Notes under the pieces: model-generated
What the model was told of the DNA's origin: nothing
The model's database searches: none
Seen by the model: the letters and a program-made list of their open reading frames with translations, nothing else
Source: a virus
Virus genome (UHGV): UHGV-0090440
DNA length: 64,000 bases
Strand: one strand, 5' to 3'
Shown: positions 7,635 through 14,493 of the stretch, piece by piece
Layout of the letters: each line of letters starts with the position of its first letter
Numbering within the stretch: the first letter of the stretch is position 1
Position numbers and translations under genes: made by a program

Positions 7635-8027
7635 CTACCAGCGAGACAAACGAACAACATGTTTCACTTTTGCGATCCACTTTCCGCGACAACTATTGAT
7701 TACGGCCTGTGCCAGCTTCAAATTGGCTTCAAAATCAGCCTTACTACCATCAGACTCCACCAGCATTCCGCCATCTATTTCTGGTAAACATAGATAATCC
7801 TGCTCAACCTGCAGCGGCATTGATGGCTCTCTGAATGGCGTTACTTGCTCTGCTTTCCAGCGAAAGCTAACCCTCATCCCCCTGGTGGTCATTACCAGAT
7901 AGCCTGTTATAGTGCTTTTATGGCCCACATCAGTACGCGTGGCATTGCATGACACGATCTTACAGTTAGCGATAGACCACTCCATATTGGTGGCCTGTTG
8001 AGTGCTTAATTTGGTAGTCCCGTACAT
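7635..8027 (-). CDS. hypothetical protein
   Basis: 130-aa ORF translationally coupled to the upstream 191-aa ORF. Confidence 0.5.
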   Translation of the reverse strand: MYGTTKLSTQQATNMEWSIANCKIVSCNATRTDVGHKSTITGYLVMTTRGMRVSFRWKAEQVTPFREPSMPLQVEQDYLCLPEIDGGMLVESDGSKADFEANLKLAQAVINSCRGKWIAKVKHVVRLSRW

Positions 8028-8602
8028 CAGAAAGCCTCCCAGTCAGTCGCGATAATATCCACACCAGTTGCAAACCAGTCTGTCTGCGCCTGTAAATCAC
8101 CATTCATCATTACCAGGCGAGGCATCACCATCACATCGCACCCTTCCACAATATCGAATGCCTCTTCCGGCAAGAATTCGAAGAGCTTTTCTTTGCTGCC
8201 AATGCTGCCACGGAACATCGATATATAGCTCCCTTTAGGCCATGATGTCCGCCGGGCATCAAGCCCTTTCATCATCCAGTAAAAAGCCGAGGAAAAAGGG
8301 ATATTCTTTTTGCCAATGATTACATTATTCGCTTCTGTGTACTTCAGGAACTTAACTAACCTTACCATTGACTCGGATAACGCAACGTATGGCTCATGAT
8401 TGATTGCTGACACGCTTACACCGTGCAATCCAACGCTTACCACTGTCATATCGCCGCTCTGTGCGGTTTCGATATTGACGCCTTTGCGAACTAATGAGGC
8501 GTAAAGTTCCTCTCGCTTTTGGGTCCAGCGTTCCCGCCTCCCTATGAAGTCACTCAAAATGAGATCTTCTTCTGCATATGCGTTATCGTTCGCCGTTAAC
8601 AT
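8027..8602 (-). CDS. hypothetical protein
   Basis: 191-aa ORF with AAAAGGAG RBS. Confidence 0.55.
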   Translation of the reverse strand: MLTANDNAYAEEDLILSDFIGRRERWTQKREELYASLVRKGVNIETAQSGDMTVVSVGLHGVSVSAINHEPYVALSESMVRLVKFLKYTEANNVIIGKKNIPFSSAFYWMMKGLDARRTSWPKGSYISMFRGSIGSKEKLFEFLPEEAFDIVEGCDVMVMPRLVMMNGDLQAQTDWFATGVDIIATDWEAF

Positions 8603-8722
8603 AACGTCTCCTTTTTACACGCGCGACCATCTCTCGGTTAAACCGATAGAGATGTCGAAACTTCGTATTAATTAAGGGTTACAGCCTGAGCGGCTATATG
8701 ATGAATTGAAAGGAGTTGTGGC

Positions 8723-8737
8723 GGTGGTGCCTCCACC
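8723..8737. other. conserved hairpin GGTGG-TGCCT-CCACC
   Basis: One of three hairpins sharing the core GGTGCCTCC with compensatory changes in the outer stem (see 10371 and 12343). Confidence 0.4.
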
Positions 8738-8822
8738 TGCCAGGTTAGCCACTCCTGGCGACGTCACTTATCAGAACGTAGTGAATGAAAATGGCTTCGT
8801 CACGAGCGCATAGCCGCAATTA

Positions 8823-8871
8823 CCACAACGGAAACGGCGCTCGCGTTAATTAAACGCCTTTTCCTGTTGTG
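8823..8871 (-). ncRNA. structured element, family member E1
   Basis: Imperfect long inverted repeat CCACAACGGAAACGG...CCTTTTCCTGTTGTG downstream of tRNA-Ile on the transcribed strand. Confidence 0.3.
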
Positions 8872-9055
8872 CGCCGTACTCTTCCGGCTGTCACACCGAA
8901 TCGCCAGGGTGGTGAGTCCTCGGTCCGACGATATGAACGGGGCTTGCACATTCCGGCTACCTGGTTTGTTGCCTGAGCTAGGGGAAAAGGTAACCCCTTT
9001 AACGTCACCAGACCGCTAACGACGCATGTGCCATACGCCGTGTTACAACCAAATA

Positions 9056-9131
9056 TGGTGGCCCCTACCGGACTTGAACCGGTGACCGTGCGATTATGAG
9101 TCGCCAGCTCTAACCACTGAGCTAAAGGGCC
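9056..9131 (-). tRNA. tRNA-Ile (anticodon CAU, ileX-like)
   Basis: 76-nt cloverleaf by hand folding: acceptor GGCCCTT/AGGGGCC, D-arm GCTCAGTGGTTAGAGC, anticodon loop CTCATAA, T-loop TTCAAGT, encoded CCA. Near-identical to E. coli ileX as recalled; CAT could also read Met. Confidence 0.85.
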
Positions 9132-9285
9132 AGATTACTGTTAATTCCGCTTACGCTTTTTGCCAGGACCGCGTAAGGCTTTTGCTGCTTGCTCGACCCC
9201 ATATACAACCACCAGCAGAAATAAAAATGTCCACCAAGGGTTCTTATCGGCAAACGTCCAAAATTCCATCATGTTCTCTATTTGG

Positions 9286-10113
9286 TTATTTCACCGGAAC
9301 AAACGGAACAGCGGTATTACTGGTCATATACTGCGGTAGCGTTCCGTTCCATTTGTTGATCGCTTCCAACTCCATAACGCCGGGGTTCTGGCGCAGAGCC
9401 TCACCGCGTAAACGAATGGCATCAGCTTCAGCCTGGGCTTTTGTGCGAATGGCATCGGCCTGTCCGGCAGCTTCTGCGCGCAGCATGTTGGCTTCTGCTT
9501 CGCGTTGCTTGACTTCCTGCTCGCGTTGCAGAGTTTTCTGGTTCGCCGTGACTTTGGCATTAATGCTGTCGATAACGGTTGGCGGGTACTCCGGCTTGCC
9601 CACATATGAGAGGCTCATTACCTGAATACCGATGGGCGTCATTTCTTCCTGGATGTCTTTAAGAGCTGCATCCAGTAGTTCAGACTTGCCACCGTCGATA
9701 AATTTGTCGGTGGTCATTTTGCTGGCCAGTCGGTTAAGTGCGTCGGCAATCTTCTGGCGCAGATCGGTGTCGGTAATGTCATCCACGCCTTTGCGGTAGG
9801 TCTGAAATACAGTTGTGACTTTTGCCGGATCAACCTTGTAAGCTACACCAATGTGGTAACCAATTGTTGTCCCGTCGCTCATTTGGAAGCTGAACGGATC
9901 ATCATAGGTCTTCATTTGCTTAAAGGTCGGGAAGATATAAACTTCTGTGTTCCAGCCTGTCCAGTAGCGACCAACGCCAACTACTTCGCCGACACCTTTA
10001 TCATCCCCCAGCTTATTTACTTTGATCCCTACATTGCCTGGTTCTACCCGGTCGCATCCGGTCAGACATAAAGAACCAAAAATAATCGCTGCACTAATCA
10101 ACGTTTTTTTCAT
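9286..10113 (-). CDS. SPFH/band-7 domain lipoprotein
   Basis: 275 aa; signal peptide with lipobox LTGC; SPFH-type core and Ala/Glu-rich coiled-coil tail (EAEANMLRAEAAGQADAIRTKAQAEADAIR). Confidence 0.8.
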   Translation of the reverse strand: MKKTLISAAIIFGSLCLTGCDRVEPGNVGIKVNKLGDDKGVGEVVGVGRYWTGWNTEVYIFPTFKQMKTYDDPFSFQMSDGTTIGYHIGVAYKVDPAKVTTVFQTYRKGVDDITDTDLRQKIADALNRLASKMTTDKFIDGGKSELLDAALKDIQEEMTPIGIQVMSLSYVGKPEYPPTVIDSINAKVTANQKTLQREQEVKQREAEANMLRAEAAGQADAIRTKAQAEADAIRLRGEALRQNPGVMELEAINKWNGTLPQYMTSNTAVPFVPVK

Positions 10114-10330
10114 TAATCAATTTCCTGGTTTTTTCACGAAAAAAGACTACTGCAAAAGCCGGGTAAATGAGCGCGAGAAGGACTCCCAACAATACAAGTA
10201 TTGTGCTGTCAGATGAGATCATATTTGGCAAAAGCCAAACATACAGAACCAGTGACACAATCAAACAGAGGACGGCATAAATATATAGCCGCACCCATAG
10301 CGTTCGACATTTGTTCGGATTGTTCTGCAT
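10094..10330 (-). CDS. small membrane protein
   Basis: 78 aa with two hydrophobic helices; overlaps the start of the SPFH gene (operon partner). Confidence 0.5.
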   Translation of the reverse strand: MQNNPNKCRTLWVRLYIYAVLCLIVSLVLYVWLLPNMISSDSTILVLLGVLLALIYPAFAVVFFREKTRKLINEKNVD

Positions 10331-10370
10331 CCTCTCACTCCATTATTCAACGAATAAAAAAGCTGCGGTG

Positions 10371-10385
10371 CCTGGTGCCTCCAGG
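10371..10385. other. conserved hairpin CCTGG-TGCCT-CCAGG
   Basis: Second copy of the GGTGCCTCC-core hairpin; on the minus strand it is followed after 9 nt by a T6 run and lies about 45 nt upstream of the 78-aa gene start. Confidence 0.4.
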
Positions 10386-10477
10386 TGACGTTAACCAGTT
10401 AACAATTAACGCCGGGATGTTTGATTTAACCACTACGGAGGATTGTTTTAACTGTTCCGCGTGCGCTTAGCCGCATT

Positions 10478-10592
10478 CACCGCAATGGTAAGAGCACTTG
10501 GCTGGCTGGGCGGCGATGACGCCTGTACGCATTTGGTGATCCGGTTCTGCTTCCGGCATTCGCTTAATTAGCCAAATACTCTTAACGTTGCG
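10478..10592 (-). ncRNA. structured element, family member E2
   Basis: Arms CACCGCAATGGTAAGAGCACTTGG / CCAAATACTCTTAACGTTGCG enclosing internal hairpins; begins 2 nt after the 3' end of the Ser-like tRNA candidate. Confidence 0.3.
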
Positions 10593-10593
10593 C

Positions 10594-10680
10594 TGGCGGA
10601 GAGTAATGGAATCGAACCATCATCGCTTGCGCAATGGGACGGTTTTCAAGACCGCTTGAGCACCATGCTCCCTACTCTCC
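10594..10680 (-). tRNA. tRNA-Ser(UGA)-like, atypical; possible pseudogene
   Basis: 87 nt: perfect 7-bp acceptor GGAGAGT/ACTCTCC, T-arm GATGG-TTCGATT-CCATT, anticodon stem-loop GCGGT-CTTGAAA-ACCGT (anticodon TGA), 17-nt variable arm, encoded CCA; but A at position 8 and a short D-loop. Hand-folded only. Confidence 0.4.
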
Positions 10681-10802
10681 AATTGTTGTGGTTACCGGTA
10701 CTGATCTCCGGCTTAGCGACCCCGGCTACTGACTGCATTGCAGTGTGTGAACTCGCCTCGTGTGTCGCTGGGGCATTTCTTTCCGCGCATCAGTCTGCGC
10801 AT

Positions 10803-10882
10803 CAACCACAACGGAAAGAGCATTGGCTAACCAGGCTCGCCGACTCTTCACGATTATCGGCCCAATGCTCTTACCTGTTGTG
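10803..10882 (-). ncRNA. structured element, family member E3
   Basis: Arms CAACCACAACGGAAAGAGCATTGG / CCCAATGCTCTTACCTGTTGTG with a 34-nt insert. Confidence 0.3.
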
Positions 10883-11061
10883 CGCTCCGTTTCGTGGAGC
10901 TAACGGCGGGTGATCGGGCCGCACCAGACTGGACTTATTTCAGCGTTATGCTCATGCCAGAGAATCAAACTGTGATGGTCGGTGCTGAACTCCGACACAG
11001 GGTTGTAGCAAGCCCCGCAAAGCGCGCACTACTGTAGTTGCGGCACATCAGCCTGTGCATT

Positions 11062-11161
11062 CACCACAATGTTGAGAACACTGGTTGTCACGCTGCCTCG
11101 CGACCTTTATTCATAGATTGGGATATGACCCCGTTACGCCAATGTTCTCAACGTTGTAGTG
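11062..11161 (-). ncRNA. structured element, family member E4
   Basis: Arms CACCACAATGTTGAGAACACTGG / CCAATGTTCTCAACGTTGTAGTG; insert contains an AGGCAG-loop hairpin. Confidence 0.3.
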
Positions 11162-11297
11162 CCGGTTACGGTTCCGGCCAGGCTTCTTCCTCAACGGGGT
11201 GTTCTCCATACGGACTACCGTTTATTGGTCGTTCCTGCGGTTTATGTTGTGAAGCCAGATGCTTATCTTCTGGTTGCTTCAAAGAGCTGCACTTCAT

Positions 11298-11384
11298 CAC
11301 AACGGTAAGGGTACTTCGTAGGGATTCGAACCCTCTGCCAAGCTCGGCGATCTCCGACGTCGCAAAATACCCTTACCTGTTGTG
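11298..11384 (-). ncRNA. tRNA-like element E5 (no anticodon arm)
   Basis: 16-bp stem CACAACGGTAAGGGTA/TACCCTTACCTGTTGTG enclosing a D-arm-like hairpin (GCGA-CGTCGGAGA-TCGC) and a T-arm-like hairpin (GAGGG-TTCGAAT-CCCTA); starts 2 nt after the tRNA-Thr 3' end. Confidence 0.35.
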
Positions 11385-11385
11385 T

Positions 11386-11461
11386 TGGTGCCGGTTAACG
11401 GACTCGAACCGCTGACATCCTGCTTACAAGGCAGGCGCTCTACCAACTGAGCTAAACCGGC
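11386..11461 (-). tRNA. tRNA-Thr (anticodon UGU)
   Basis: 76 nt: acceptor GCCGGTT/AACCGGC, D-arm GCTCAGTTGGTAGAGC, anticodon loop CTTGTAA, T-loop TTCGAGT, encoded CCA. Confidence 0.9.
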
Positions 11462-11465
11462 AATT

Positions 11466-11552
11466 TGGTGGGGAGTGATGGAGTCGAACCACCCGAGTCG
11501 CAATGACAGTAGATTTACAGTCTACCCCGCTGCCCCTACGGACTAACTCCCC
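11466..11552 (-). tRNA. tRNA-Tyr (anticodon GUA), type II
   Basis: 87 nt: acceptor GGGGAGT/ACTCCCC, anticodon stem-loop GTAGA-CTGTAAA-TCTAC, long variable arm, T-loop TTCGACT, encoded CCA. Confidence 0.8.
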
Positions 11553-11557
11553 TAAAT

Positions 11558-11632
11558 TGGCGATGGTGGGTGGATTCGAACCACCGACCAGTTGGTTAAC
11601 AGCCAACTGCTCTACCGCTGAGCTACACCATC
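11558..11632 (-). tRNA. tRNA-Asn (anticodon GUU)
   Basis: 75 nt: acceptor GATGGTG/CACCATC, D-arm GCTCAGCGGTAGAGC, anticodon loop CTGTTAA, T-loop TTCGAAT, encoded CCA. Confidence 0.9.
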
Positions 11633-12085
11633 ACTTGCCGGGTACGTCTCCGGCGAGGGCTTCCACCTCCGTATGCTTTTCGGCGCACCGCGCCCTGGCT
11701 GCAATTCGGTAACAGGGGATGCATAACCCTGGCTTCCAGCGTGATTAGCGCCTTCAGCATGACGGGATATACCCGTTGCAAGACATTATCCCAGAAAGCC
11801 ATTAACCAATGGCTGTTACGCGGGAGGGACGTAACAGGTAAGGGCGCTGACCAGAAAGACCTGACCCTTCTCATTCATCTGGTTAATCACACCAGCGCCC
11901 TTGCCTGTTATGCCTCCCCGTTCCCTAATACACAGACGGGGACACTCTGCGGTCGATTTTTTGACGGGGGACGACTCATACCCCGTGGCGTCAGGCTTCT
12001 TAGGCCGCTACCATCATCAGATCATCGTTTGCATTTACTTTAATGGTCGGTTTCTAAACCGCCGCAAAGTCGCTAACCATGACGA

Positions 12086-12116
12086 AAACCCTAAAAAAGC
12101 CCACCCGAAGATGGGC
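12086..12116 (-). terminator. intrinsic terminator (minus strand)
   Basis: Minus strand reads GCCCATC-TTCG-GGTGGGC followed by TTTTTTAGGGTTTTC; upstream of the Asn-Tyr-Thr tRNA cluster. Confidence 0.45.
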
Positions 12117-12140
12117 AAATACGCTACGTATCACACAAGA

Positions 12141-12212
12141 AAGAAGCCGACTGCCTGAACTGGATTCACTTTCAAATGCCCGCTGAAAGGGATCACAAGT
12201 CGGCTTCTTTCT
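12141..12212. repeat. long inverted repeat with nested hairpin
   Basis: Perfect 16-bp arms AAGAAAGAAGCCGACT / AGTCGGCTTCTTTCTT separated by about 40 bp that contain a second hairpin (CTTTCA...TGAAAG). Confidence 0.4.
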
Positions 12213-12342
12213 TGATGCGGCACTCTCTCCGCCCGTCACCGCTCTGTCTCGGTTGTCGCGTTTGCCACGCCAGCCATAACGAGGTTTAAAGTCTTTGCAC
12301 GTTCCCATCACTCGACTGCCGTCTGAGGCTGTTCGTTGCAGC

Positions 12343-12357
12343 GGGGGTGCCTCCCCC
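12343..12357. other. conserved hairpin GGGGG-TGCCT-CCCCC
   Basis: Third copy of the GGTGCCTCC-core hairpin with a different, fully complementary outer stem. Confidence 0.4.
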
Positions 12358-12426
12358 TGGGGATATCCCCGGCCTTACCCCATTCTTTCAAGACACAATG
12401 CAAGGCCACATCCGCATAGGTGCATT

Positions 12427-12488
12427 ACCGCAACATTAAGGAGGCATAGGGCGGTTACCTTTTGCCCTGAGTCTCCTTAATGTTGAAG
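12427..12488 (-). ncRNA. structured element, family member E6
   Basis: Arms ACCGCAACATTAAGGAG / CTCCTTAATGTTGAAG enclosing hairpin AGGGC...GCCCT. Confidence 0.3.
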
Positions 12489-12840
12489 ATGTGCATTGAT
12501 GATTAGATGCAGCATGTACCGTTACTCTCTGCCGGACCATCATCAATGAACACCTTAAAAAGACCTTCCGTGGCTCAACATGGACTGTCGTTTACTCCGC
12601 AAAGTGCTCTCTCTGAAACCACTTTCCGCACTAAACCTGCTGAATTTTGGCCTGCACGGTGCCAAAGCGTGCTCTTGCGTTACCATACTTTTCTAACGCT
12701 TTAATTTGTTAAATGCTGGTGGGCGAACAATAACCAATAAGTGACTATCAAGCCCAGCAAGCGAAACGTGGGTGCCGCCCACCAGCAAGGAAAATTCTAT
12801 GTTAAGTTACCTTCACAATCAATACATTCGAATCGTAATT

Positions 12841-14065: not shown

Positions 14066-14089
14066 TGCTGTTCCCGTTACCTTGTTAAA

Positions 14090-14103
14090 TTAGTTTTCTA
14101 ACA
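14090..14103 (-). promoter_or_regulatory. recurrent 14-bp motif site (TGTTAGAAAACTAA)
   Basis: Identical to the site at 3172-3185; lies between a terminator and the 402-aa gene start. Confidence 0.4.
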
Positions 14104-14144
14104 TATTTTATTAGTTTGATGACGGTAGCGAAAGATGCAATAAA

Positions 14145-14175
14145 CAAAAAACCCGCCAATTGGCGGGTTTTTATG
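14145..14175. terminator. bidirectional intrinsic terminator
   Basis: A-run, ACCCGCCAA/TTGGCGGGT palindrome, T-run (AAAAAACCCGCCAATTGGCGGGTTTTTAT). Confidence 0.6.
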
Positions 14176-14178
14176 CAA

Positions 14179-14493
14179 TTACTGTGTTGCAGCCTGATAA
14201 ATAAGATACGAGATAAATACAGGTACGATGGCCCATTCCAGCAATGAAAGTAGCCTCATTACTGTTATTGGGGTAACTCCATCCACGTATTGTTTCTCTG
14301 ACATTTTCCCTAACCAACTAACCGACAACAGTGCCGAGTTTTCACCCAATTCCAGCTCTCTGAGCGCTTCACGGATTAACGGCGCTGTCACAGCCTTAAC
14401 CGGTGTGCTCAACGTGATACTCCGCGTCCTCCCCGCATCGTCAGCGAACGCCAGACTCACATAATATTTTTTGCTCAATGTACAAACTCCCAA
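14179..14493 (-). CDS. hypothetical protein with C-terminal hydrophobic segment
   Basis: 104-aa ORF ending in a probable transmembrane helix; followed by the terminator. Confidence 0.45.
   Translation of the reverse strand: MGVCTLSKKYYVSLAFADDAGRTRSITLSTPVKAVTAPLIREALRELELGENSALLSVSWLGKMSEKQYVDGVTPITVMRLLSLLEWAIVPVFISYLIYQAATQ

Follow-up and report, generated by a model that had tools for sequence, protein, structure and literature searches.

STnc100 is listed among the most abundant annotated small-RNA families of bacterial genomes (PMC9029176), and enterohaemorrhagic Escherichia coli (EHEC) EDL933 expresses eleven copies of it, for one of which a Northern blot gave confirmation (PMC5331693). 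Structural similarity to STnc100 is reported (bioRxiv 10.64898/2026.05.13.724894) for PasD, a small RNA of enteropathogenic E. coli (EPEC) that depends on Hfq (PMC8550237). A canonical STnc100 gene is composed of a leader, a core, a linker of ~25 nt and an intrinsic terminator; an example, from an Stx2 phage, lies 75 nt beyond stx2B. Other phage RNAs are tRNA-like and processed, such as the C4 RNA of phage P1, which is matured by RNase P, and the species 1 and 2 RNAs of T4. Here we describe a core-only, multi-copy variant of the STnc100 family, with two subtypes that go undetected by Rfam, in the virus genome UHGV-0090440 (the window hereafter, i.e. the whole stretch of 64 kb that was analysed). 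The window is a D6-like phage-plasmid of the P1 family, with 96.7% identity to Escherichia phage D6 across the aligned parts, and the variant comes to light there through three short hairpins with a common AGGCA loop.

Three hairpins and the modules that contain them

A sequence-only reading of the window had singled out three hairpins that keep the same loop and inner pairs while their outer stem bases differ and stay complementary, GGTGG-TGCCT-CCACC (8723-8737), CCTGG-TGCCT-CCAGG (10371-10385) and GGGGG-TGCCT-CCCCC (12343-12357), and all three are where it placed them. Each has a perfect 5-bp stem and a 5-nt loop (the minus-strand letters are given in Table 1). The 9-mer GGTGCCTCC occurs three times in the window, always on the plus strand, when 0.32 occurrences are expected, and three or more copies were reached by only one of 100 dinucleotide shuffles. 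Among the 87 TGCCT and 54 AGGCA pentamers of the window, only these three have flanks that pair perfectly over 5 bp or more; for each site, the three further complementary flank pairs have a chance probability of about 1/64. A chance origin is ruled out by the shuffles, by the pentamer survey and by a covariance model (R1, see below) that finds exactly three sites. The hairpins and their covariation are genuine and not due to chance.

A view of the hairpins as independent, stand-alone elements had to be abandoned upon discovery of helices that close around them. Each hairpin is the terminal helix, P5, of a multi-helix module of ~100-127 nt, called S1, S2 or S3 (Table 1). The modules are built, in order, of an 8-bp closing helix (the P1 helix), the trinucleotide AAU, P2 (5 bp with a 1-nt bulge and a UNNGC pentaloop), a variable middle, a sequence-variable hairpin (P4), (U)CA, P5 and the 3′ strand of the P1 helix, which abuts that of P5: no nucleotide separates the two, and the strands are contiguous in all members. 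In P5 the three outer pairs vary, and the GG/CC next to the AGGCA pentaloop is invariant. The minimum free energy folds of S1, S2 and S3 each independently recover the P1 helix and P5 (z = -2.22, -1.7 and -2.90, respectively), and that of S3 gives P1 helix, P2, P4 and P5; folding of arbitrary 101-nt windows around the hairpins yielded non-significant z-scores. It is thus well supported that three paralogous, structured RNA modules are transcribed from the minus strand, that each has one of the hairpins as its P5 helix and that they are under strong structural selection.

Table 1. Positions of the modules, of their helices and of other features of the region, in coordinates of the window
Feature	Position	Strand	Description
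Module S3	12334..12435	-	P1 helix GUUGCGGU 12434-12427 with GCUGCAAC 12342-12335; AAU 12426-12424
S3 inner helices	within 12334..12435	-	P2 GCACC-UAUGC-GG(A)UGU from 12423; P4 GGGG-AUAU-CCCC
Hairpin 3 = P5 of S3	12343..12357	-	GGGGG-AGGCA-CCCCC
Module S2	10361..10487	-	RF02076: 37.1 bits, E 9e-7; P1 helix UUGCGGUG 10485-10478 with CACCGCAG 10370-10363; AAU 10477-10475
S2 inner helices	within 10361..10487	-	P2 GCGGC-UAAGC-GC(A)CGC from 10474; P4 CGUUAA...UUAACG
Hairpin 2 = P5 of S2	10371..10385	-	CCUGG-AGGCA-CCAGG
Module S1	8714..8830	-	P1 helix GUUGUGGU 8829-8822 with GCCACAAC 8722-8715; AAU 8821-8819
S1 inner helices	within 8714..8830	-	P2 GCGGC-UAUGC-GC(U)CGU; P4 CCAGG...CCUGG
Hairpin 1 = P5 of S1	8723..8737	-	GGUGG-AGGCA-CCACC
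Sister module, 9-nt P5 loop	10968..11071	-	R1 with filters off: 15.6 bits, E 0.006; P1 helix AUUGUGGUG/CAUCACAGU; AAU
Helices of the 10968-11071 sister		-	P2 GCACA-GGCUGA-UGUGC; P5-like GUCGG-AGUUCAGCA-CCGAC
Sister module, 9-nt P5 loop	10684..10813	-	R1 with filters off: 10.8 bits, E 0.1; P1 helix GUUGUGGUU/AACCACAAC; GAU
Helices of the 10684-10813 sister		-	P2 GCGCA-GACUGA-UGCGC; P5-like ACCGG-AGAUCAGUA-CCGGU
boxA-like UGCUCUUA	10489..10496	-	3 nt 5′ of the S2 closing helix; a lead only
U6 run	10356..10361	-	One nt after the 3′ strand of the S2 P1 helix; first sequence of the SPFH cassette variant
Five tRNA genes among the modules	span 9056..11632	-	Asn 11632-11558, Tyr 11552-11466, Thr 11461-11386, Ser 10680-10594, Met 9131-9056
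Intrinsic-terminator-like hairpin GCCCAUCUUCGGGUGGGC + U6	12093..12116	-	Between S3 (~215 nt away) and the tRNA genes; within the presumed operon
Sigma-70-like promoter match TTGATT-17 nt-TAGAAT	12794..12822	-	After the pmgS stop; consensus match only

Examination of related genomes, the check that had been suggested for copies and covariation, showed that the three sites are kept in D6 and in 28 IMG/VR loci and that their outer stem pairs covary. At S2 the stem alternates between CCUGG/CCAGG and CCGGG/CCCGG, and intermediates with a G.U pair are found both at S2 (CCGGG/CUCGG, in L020) and at S3 (GGGGG/CUCCC, in L003). Pair 6 of the S3 P1 helix is G.U, A-U or G-C in the orthologues. Selection on structure, as had been proposed from covariation, is borne out, and the covariation is far stronger than is visible from the window alone. 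So is the placement of the structure on the transcribed strand: since the G.U intermediates pair on the minus strand only, it is the RNA of that strand which carries the selected structure.

Some longer hairpins adjoin the modules. One with 13-bp arms, CAACAUUAAGGAG/CUCCUUAAUGUUG, is located immediately 5′ of S3 (12429-12485, minus strand), and the S3 closing helix has its first 4 nt in common with the 3′ arm of this hairpin. The ~30 nt between the arms, shortened by a deletion of 9 nt, read as the reverse complement of the segment that D6 and all other relatives have there; read from the sequences, the difference is a small inversion flanked by inverted repeats. Long hairpins of the form CACAACAGG(U/A)AAG...CUU(U/A)CCGUUGUG recur between units (~11385-11295, ~10885-10810 and ~8875-8825, minus strand), one of them directly after the CCA end of tRNA-Thr, and their 3′ arm either provides, or overlaps with, the 5′ strand of the helix that closes the following module. 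Mutually exclusive pairings between these hairpins and the closing helices are possible.

Relation to the STnc100 family

An Rfam scan of 7.5 kb matched S2 (10484-10364, minus strand) to positions 31-147 of the STnc100 model, RF02076, with 37.1 bits and an E-value of 2e-5, the curated gathering cut-off of that model being 47 bits. Neither S1 nor S3 gave an RF02076 match, even at E = 10, and the other Rfam identities considered for them were noise only, e.g. miRNA and mascRNA models. Relatives of S2 in phage P1, RCS47 and D6-like phages score 33.4-40.8 bits, i.e. they are sub-threshold and core-only as well, and canonical STnc100 copies score 207.7 (the one downstream of stx2B) and 81 bits. In the RF02076 alignment, P5 of S2 is the last hairpin of the family, whose consensus is CCGGG-AGGCA-CCCGG, and the CACCGCA found right after it pairs with a UGCGGUG located ~110 nt upstream, which is the STnc100 closing helix (UUGCGGUG side).

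The window copies have their structured core in common with STnc100 and PasD: the closing helix, of 8 bp, ends in GGUG/CACC and is followed by AAU; P2 has 5 bp and a pentaloop whose last two bases are GC; and after the variable middle a P5 of the form CCNGG-AGGCA-CCNGG abuts the closing helix. They are also alike in being phage-borne and multi-copy, often downstream of tRNA genes and beside moron cassettes. The window copies depart from the STnc100 gene architecture in that the leader of ~30 nt (model positions 1-30) and the linker-plus-terminator tail (positions 148-206) are missing, in that they are sub-threshold or undetected, and in that they stand as cassette leaders in a P1-type operon; S1 and S3 further differ by a GGU-AAU junction that has a U.G pair and by other P5 stems.

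A covariance model, R1, was built from phage sequences pulled by pattern from IMG/VR, thinned to a diverse set of 33 that has no S1- or S3-type member, and aligned with MAFFT. Run on both strands of the 64-kb window, it returned exactly three matches, all full length and on the minus strand: S2 with 84.3 bits (E 9e-19), S3 with 32.8 (E 3.5e-6) and S1 with 32.5 (E 4.2e-6). RNAalifold, applied to the structure-blind MAFFT alignment, predicts the P1 helix, P2 and P5, with 6-13 double compensatory changes in the four outer pairs of the P1 helix, 11-13 in three of the five pairs of P2 and 5 in P5. A second alignment, A2, comprises 87 matches from 43 sources, which make 63 distinct sequences; there, 98.4% of the cells pair, compared to 78.6% upon shuffling and 33-50% when the partners are slid, these counts being biased to structure because A2 was fitted to the model, a bias of which the MAFFT-based result is free. 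P5 is 100% paired in A2, with double changes in three of its five pairs. The S1 subtype (GUUGUGGUAAU ... GCCACAAC) is widespread in the phage scan, with a constant P1 helix and covarying P5 stems (GGUGG, GGGGG, CCUGG, UCUGG, CAUGG and one G.U form) around a centre that is always GG-AGGCA-CC. A negative control is provided by a scan with the pattern GGAGGCACCNNNGCNNCAAC, whose ~19 chance matches have neither the hairpin nor the P1 helix.

Taken together, homology of the fold to the structured core of STnc100 (positions 31-147) is well supported, S2 being a core-only relative and S1 and S3 divergent subtypes missed by Rfam. What is conserved in STnc100 is an autonomous, strongly covarying multi-helix core and not a seed-plus-terminator small RNA.

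Loop invariance, sister modules and resemblance to tRNA

In a census of P5 loops, for which the sample was anchored on the 5′ end of the module only, AGGCA was present in 119 units, the variants being AAGCA (5 units, the phage P1 copy among them), AGGAA (2), AGGCC (1) and AGGCG (1). Across these five loop types G3 never changes, and C4 is found in all but one. The P2 pentaloop, UNNGC, has an invariant GC in the 33-sequence alignment.

With its filters off, R1 points to two weakly matching sister modules with a 9-nt P5 loop between S3 and S2 (Table 1), both of which fold with the same architecture as S1-S3. In the one at 10968-11071, the GCUGA of the P2 loop is complementary to a UCAGC in the P5 loop (5 bp). 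In the one at 10684-10813 the two loop segments are ACUGA and UCAGU, a double compensatory change with respect to the GCUGA/UCAGC of its orthologues. This sister subclass is present in further phage contigs (L339, L363, L370, L374 and L408).

By analogy with the sister class and its one double change, and in view of the loop invariance, we propose that P5 stacks coaxially on the P1 helix and that the invariant G-C of the P2 loop would be base-paired to G3 and C4 of AGGCA, a loop-loop contact by which the module would be held in a compact, tRNA-elbow-like shape. Such a contact, for which the P2 loop offers AGGCA a plausible partner, is our proposed explanation for the constancy of the loop and of the two inner pairs next to outer pairs that covary. 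We regard the case for this stacked, elbow-like arrangement as evenly balanced.

The resemblance to tRNA extends to several features. The closing helix is continuous with a 5-bp arm, as the acceptor stem is with the T arm; a short linker leads to a second arm, as to the D arm; the proposed contact between the two arms would correspond to the D-loop/T-loop elbow; and the modules sit in an array of tRNA genes. R1 gives weakly positive, full-length scores on tRNA-Asn and tRNA-Tyr (7.3 and 5.9 bits), which are not significant. The differences are these: the modules have 100-127 nt, a closing helix of 8 bp and not 7, a 5-nt AGGCA loop and not a 7-nt T loop, and neither an anticodon arm nor CCA.

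Contexts and possible roles of the modules

All genes from 7.1 to 14 kb of the window are on the minus strand. In the direction of transcription, pmgS (14065-12857) is followed by ~500 nt of non-coding sequence and S3; then come the terminator-like site 12116-12093, the genes for tRNA-Asn, -Tyr and -Thr, further non-coding RNA, the gene for tRNA-Ser, and S2. Between S2 and S1 is a cassette that encodes a membrane protein of 78 aa, an SPFH protein, a protein of 43 aa and tRNA-Met, and beyond S1 are found the gene of a Tad2-like-domain protein of 191 aa, an open reading frame (ORF) of 130 aa and lpa. S1 is followed by 112 nt and then an ORF, S3 by ~215 nt and then the terminator. The homologous stretch of phage P1 is the C1-controlled ban operon; a search for P1-type C1 operators found none with three or fewer mismatches, so that repressor control of the transcript is not assignable.

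A survey of 215 distinct phage contexts revealed a terminator-like hairpin 20-31 nt after the core in 93 of them. Most of the remaining contexts lead, after 20-40 nt, into ORFs of various kinds (TerB/tciA, small membrane proteins, a KilAC-like protein). Same-strand tRNA genes were found within 1 kb upstream in 44 contexts and downstream in 8. Phage P1, RCS47 and Ro157 carry one S2-type copy, which in phage P1 is directly upstream of tciA, and D6-like phages carry three or more modules. In the D6 group there is a mosaic joint at the end of S2 (10363-10370): sequence identity is lost within 1-3 nt of it, and at least four unrelated cassettes follow (SPFH, tciAB and two others; L002-L030). The S2-S1 distance ranges from ~600 to ~1650 nt among relatives, and the S3-S2 distance varies with tRNA content.

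From these contexts we suggest that the module may be a generic, portable structured domain placed on the 5′ side of varied downstream RNA. In lambdoid prophages the downstream part is a linker of 20-31 nt and an intrinsic terminator, giving an STnc100/PasD-type small RNA; in the window and in many other phages the module is the leader of unrelated accessory-gene cassettes. It could act as a block that resists nucleases or defines processing, punctuating a long, mostly untranslated, tRNA-rich transcript and protecting the downstream RNA, and tRNA-processing enzymes may recognise it. This role, a portable domain that stabilises or processes downstream RNA, is put forward tentatively. Taken as a whole, an STnc100-core module with a P5 loop contact, used as a portable structured domain, is probably the best explanation of what we observe. 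A tail-less core stands as leader of unrelated cassettes, with one copy in phage P1 (upstream of tciA) and three to five in D6-like phage-plasmids, divergent subtypes escape the Rfam model, and the modules mark the junctions where accessory cassettes swap (SPFH, TerB and that of the Tad2-like protein). A more specific version may be formulated, although we think it improbable: that the STnc100 core is a tRNA-shaped adaptor, a P2/P5 elbow mimic with the AGGCA hairpin as the elbow-forming arm, placed at junctions between tRNA genes and accessory or anti-defence cassettes of temperate lambdoid, P1 and D6 phages, and that it would recruit RNase P or another elbow reader to cut the transcripts, or act as a decoy for tRNA-targeting defence nucleases.

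Several points weigh against this explanation. As regards the family, S2 is below the RF02076 cut-off and S1 and S3 are not matched at all; the R1 scores of the latter two lean heavily on the invariant GGAGGCACC and on the GGU-AAU-...CUAUGCG stretch; the thermodynamic z-scores are modest; the A2 pair counts carry the bias mentioned above; and STnc100 is without assigned function (PMC9029176; bioRxiv 10.64898/2026.05.13.724894). As regards the contact, it amounts to only 2-3 bp in the AGGCA class, where an invariant GC faces an invariant GC, and in the AGGAA variants C4 is lost and P2 shows no compensating change. As regards likeness to tRNA, tRNA detection with ARAGORN and the Rfam tRNA model called only the five true tRNAs and none of the modules, and the first pair of the P1 helix has no G-C bias, which a good RNase P substrate would usually show.

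The alternative that fares best, improbable as it also appears to us, is that the modules are Hfq-dependent, base-pairing small RNAs of the STnc100/PasD kind, processed from the operon transcript, with P5 as a mere scaffold. PasD is Hfq-dependent and reportedly related to STnc100 (PMC8550237; bioRxiv 10.64898/2026.05.13.724894), STnc100 copies are expressed in EHEC lysogens (PMC5331693), and in P1vir infection of an hfq mutant tciA, the gene that adjoins the phage P1 copy, is over-induced (bioRxiv 10.64898/2025.12.28.696737), a circumstantial argument. But the window copies, whose Rfam match spans positions 31-147 only, are devoid of the linker-plus-terminator tail with its Hfq-binding 3′ end and presumably its seed, and the conserved part is the structured core and not a single-stranded seed.

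Another possibility would be that the hairpins are sites for processive antitermination, of the lambda nut boxB type or as part of an rrn-type boxA complex, which would carry polymerase through the internal terminator and the long untranslated stretch of tRNA and non-coding RNA. The geometry invites the comparison: lambda boxB is likewise a 5-bp stem with a 5-nt loop, 15 nt in all, and three copies occur here in one transcription unit with the strong terminator-like site at 12116-12093. A boxA-like sequence is present a few nucleotides upstream of S2 (Table 1) and, as UGCUCUU(U/A)CC, is kept before the P1 helix in 10 of 71 distinct P1/D6-type contexts (e.g. L001, L023, L034, L305 and L326). 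Its phage P1 version is UGCUCUUU, identical to the start of E. coli rrn boxA. In a nut site boxA (CGCUCUUA) is found a few nt 5′ of the hairpin; here UGCUCUUA is ~100 nt upstream of P5, with only poor matches at S1 and S3 and none in 92 lambdoid-type contexts. Neither AGGCA nor its variants AAGCA, AGGAA, AGGCC and AGGCG are GNRA-like, contrary to the boxB loops (GAAAA, GAAGA or similar), and P5 is buried within a larger multi-helix fold, where it would be stacked on the P1 helix. No N-like protein was identified, and the same core occurs in small-RNA genes that are expressed in lysogens (PMC5331693) of lambdoid phages with N/nut or Q systems of their own. We thus consider antitermination quite unlikely.

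The sequence-only reading had noted a T-run after one copy and had suggested an attenuator or a protein-binding hairpin. A stand-alone hairpin that binds protein finds no support here. The run does exist, at S2 in front of the SPFH cassette, but it is a property of the cassette and not of the element: it is found only where that cassette follows (in the window, L006, L008, L011, L024, L028, RCS47 and Ro157), other sequence is found there in D6 and most relatives, which have tciA or other cassettes, the sequence right after the module is T-rich in only 6 of the 215 contexts, and S1 and S3 have no U-run. Because the run is limited to the SPFH cassette variant, a general attenuator is unsupported. 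An intrinsic terminator or attenuator acting before the SPFH operon in particular could be imagined at S2, where the GC-rich closing helix of 8 bp is followed by C and U6, the first ORF lies 26 nt past the run, and RCS47 and Ro157 have an identical junction before the same cassette. It has little probability in our view. P5 cannot be the terminator stem, since the U-run begins 9 nt after it, and the helix that does abut the run closes a multi-branch loop of ~110 nt, unlike known intrinsic terminators; the terminator scan flagged neither this helix nor any of the three hairpins. Inspection of the folds showed no antiterminator pairing or leader peptide; upstream hairpins do overlap the 5′ strand of the P1 helix at S1 and S3.

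The last alternative, DNA-level sites such as protein-binding palindromes or recombination joints for cassette exchange, might be suggested by the break of identity among relatives within 1-3 nt of the end of S2 and by the different cassettes that follow, but its probability is negligible, as the G.U intermediates of P5 and the many in the P1 helix would be A.C mismatches on the opposite strand, the inverted repeat is asymmetric at its centre, arms that vary around a constant centre and long-range covariation in the P1 helix and P2 fit RNA rather than a site of DNA binding, and the mosaic joints are equally explained by homologous recombination within a conserved module.

Other candidates were set aside more directly. 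Integron attC-like sites were rejected on the G.U evidence and for want of core-site motifs, and a binding site for CsrA was left aside because the AGGCA loop has no GGA, which only the rare AGGAA variant contains. Pairing of the anti-Shine-Dalgarno-like CCUCCUUA, in the middle of the D6 S2, with the GGAGG of P5 is not conserved among orthologues. A gene-specific riboswitch is unlikely because the downstream genes are unrelated.

Around the STnc100-like modules, a few further features of the region may be mentioned. The intrinsic-terminator-like hairpin downstream of S3 lies at a place whose phage P1 homologue is annotated as a 'dicF-like region'; DicF itself was rejected, the Rfam scan finding none in this part of the window. 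The promoter scan of the region was weak, with 3 matches against 8.2 expected in shuffles, and the match after the pmgS stop is a possible, candidate start of the module-bearing transcript. About 12 nt downstream of it, the only promoter-like match of this strand, there is a hairpin GUGGG-CGGCA-CCCAC (12768-12782, minus strand) that has the same 5-bp/5-nt geometry as P5 and a loop differing from AGGCA by one base; it competes with a longer helix, GCUGGUGGGCG...CGCCCACCAGC. Upstream of pmgS (14078-14249) is a bidirectional terminator-like palindrome, AAAAACCCGCCAATTGGCGGGTTTTT (14172-14147), which attracts several low-scoring Rfam matches, to models of amino-acid leaders and the rnk leader, none of them anywhere near its cut-off.

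The 191-aa protein encoded directly downstream of S1 (8027-8602, minus strand) corresponds to D6 orf6, annotated as hypothetical, and has a Tad2-like domain (PF11195, E 1e-9, above cut-off). Tad2 stands for Thoeris anti-defence 2, and the domain match suggests that this gene may be an anti-defence cargo of the accessory region. Finally, for tRNA-Ser(UGA) at 10594-10680 (minus strand) the top Rfam model is that of tRNA-Sec, with 44.6 bits against a cut-off of 47, and in the D6 record tRNAscan left the amino acid of this tRNA uncalled.

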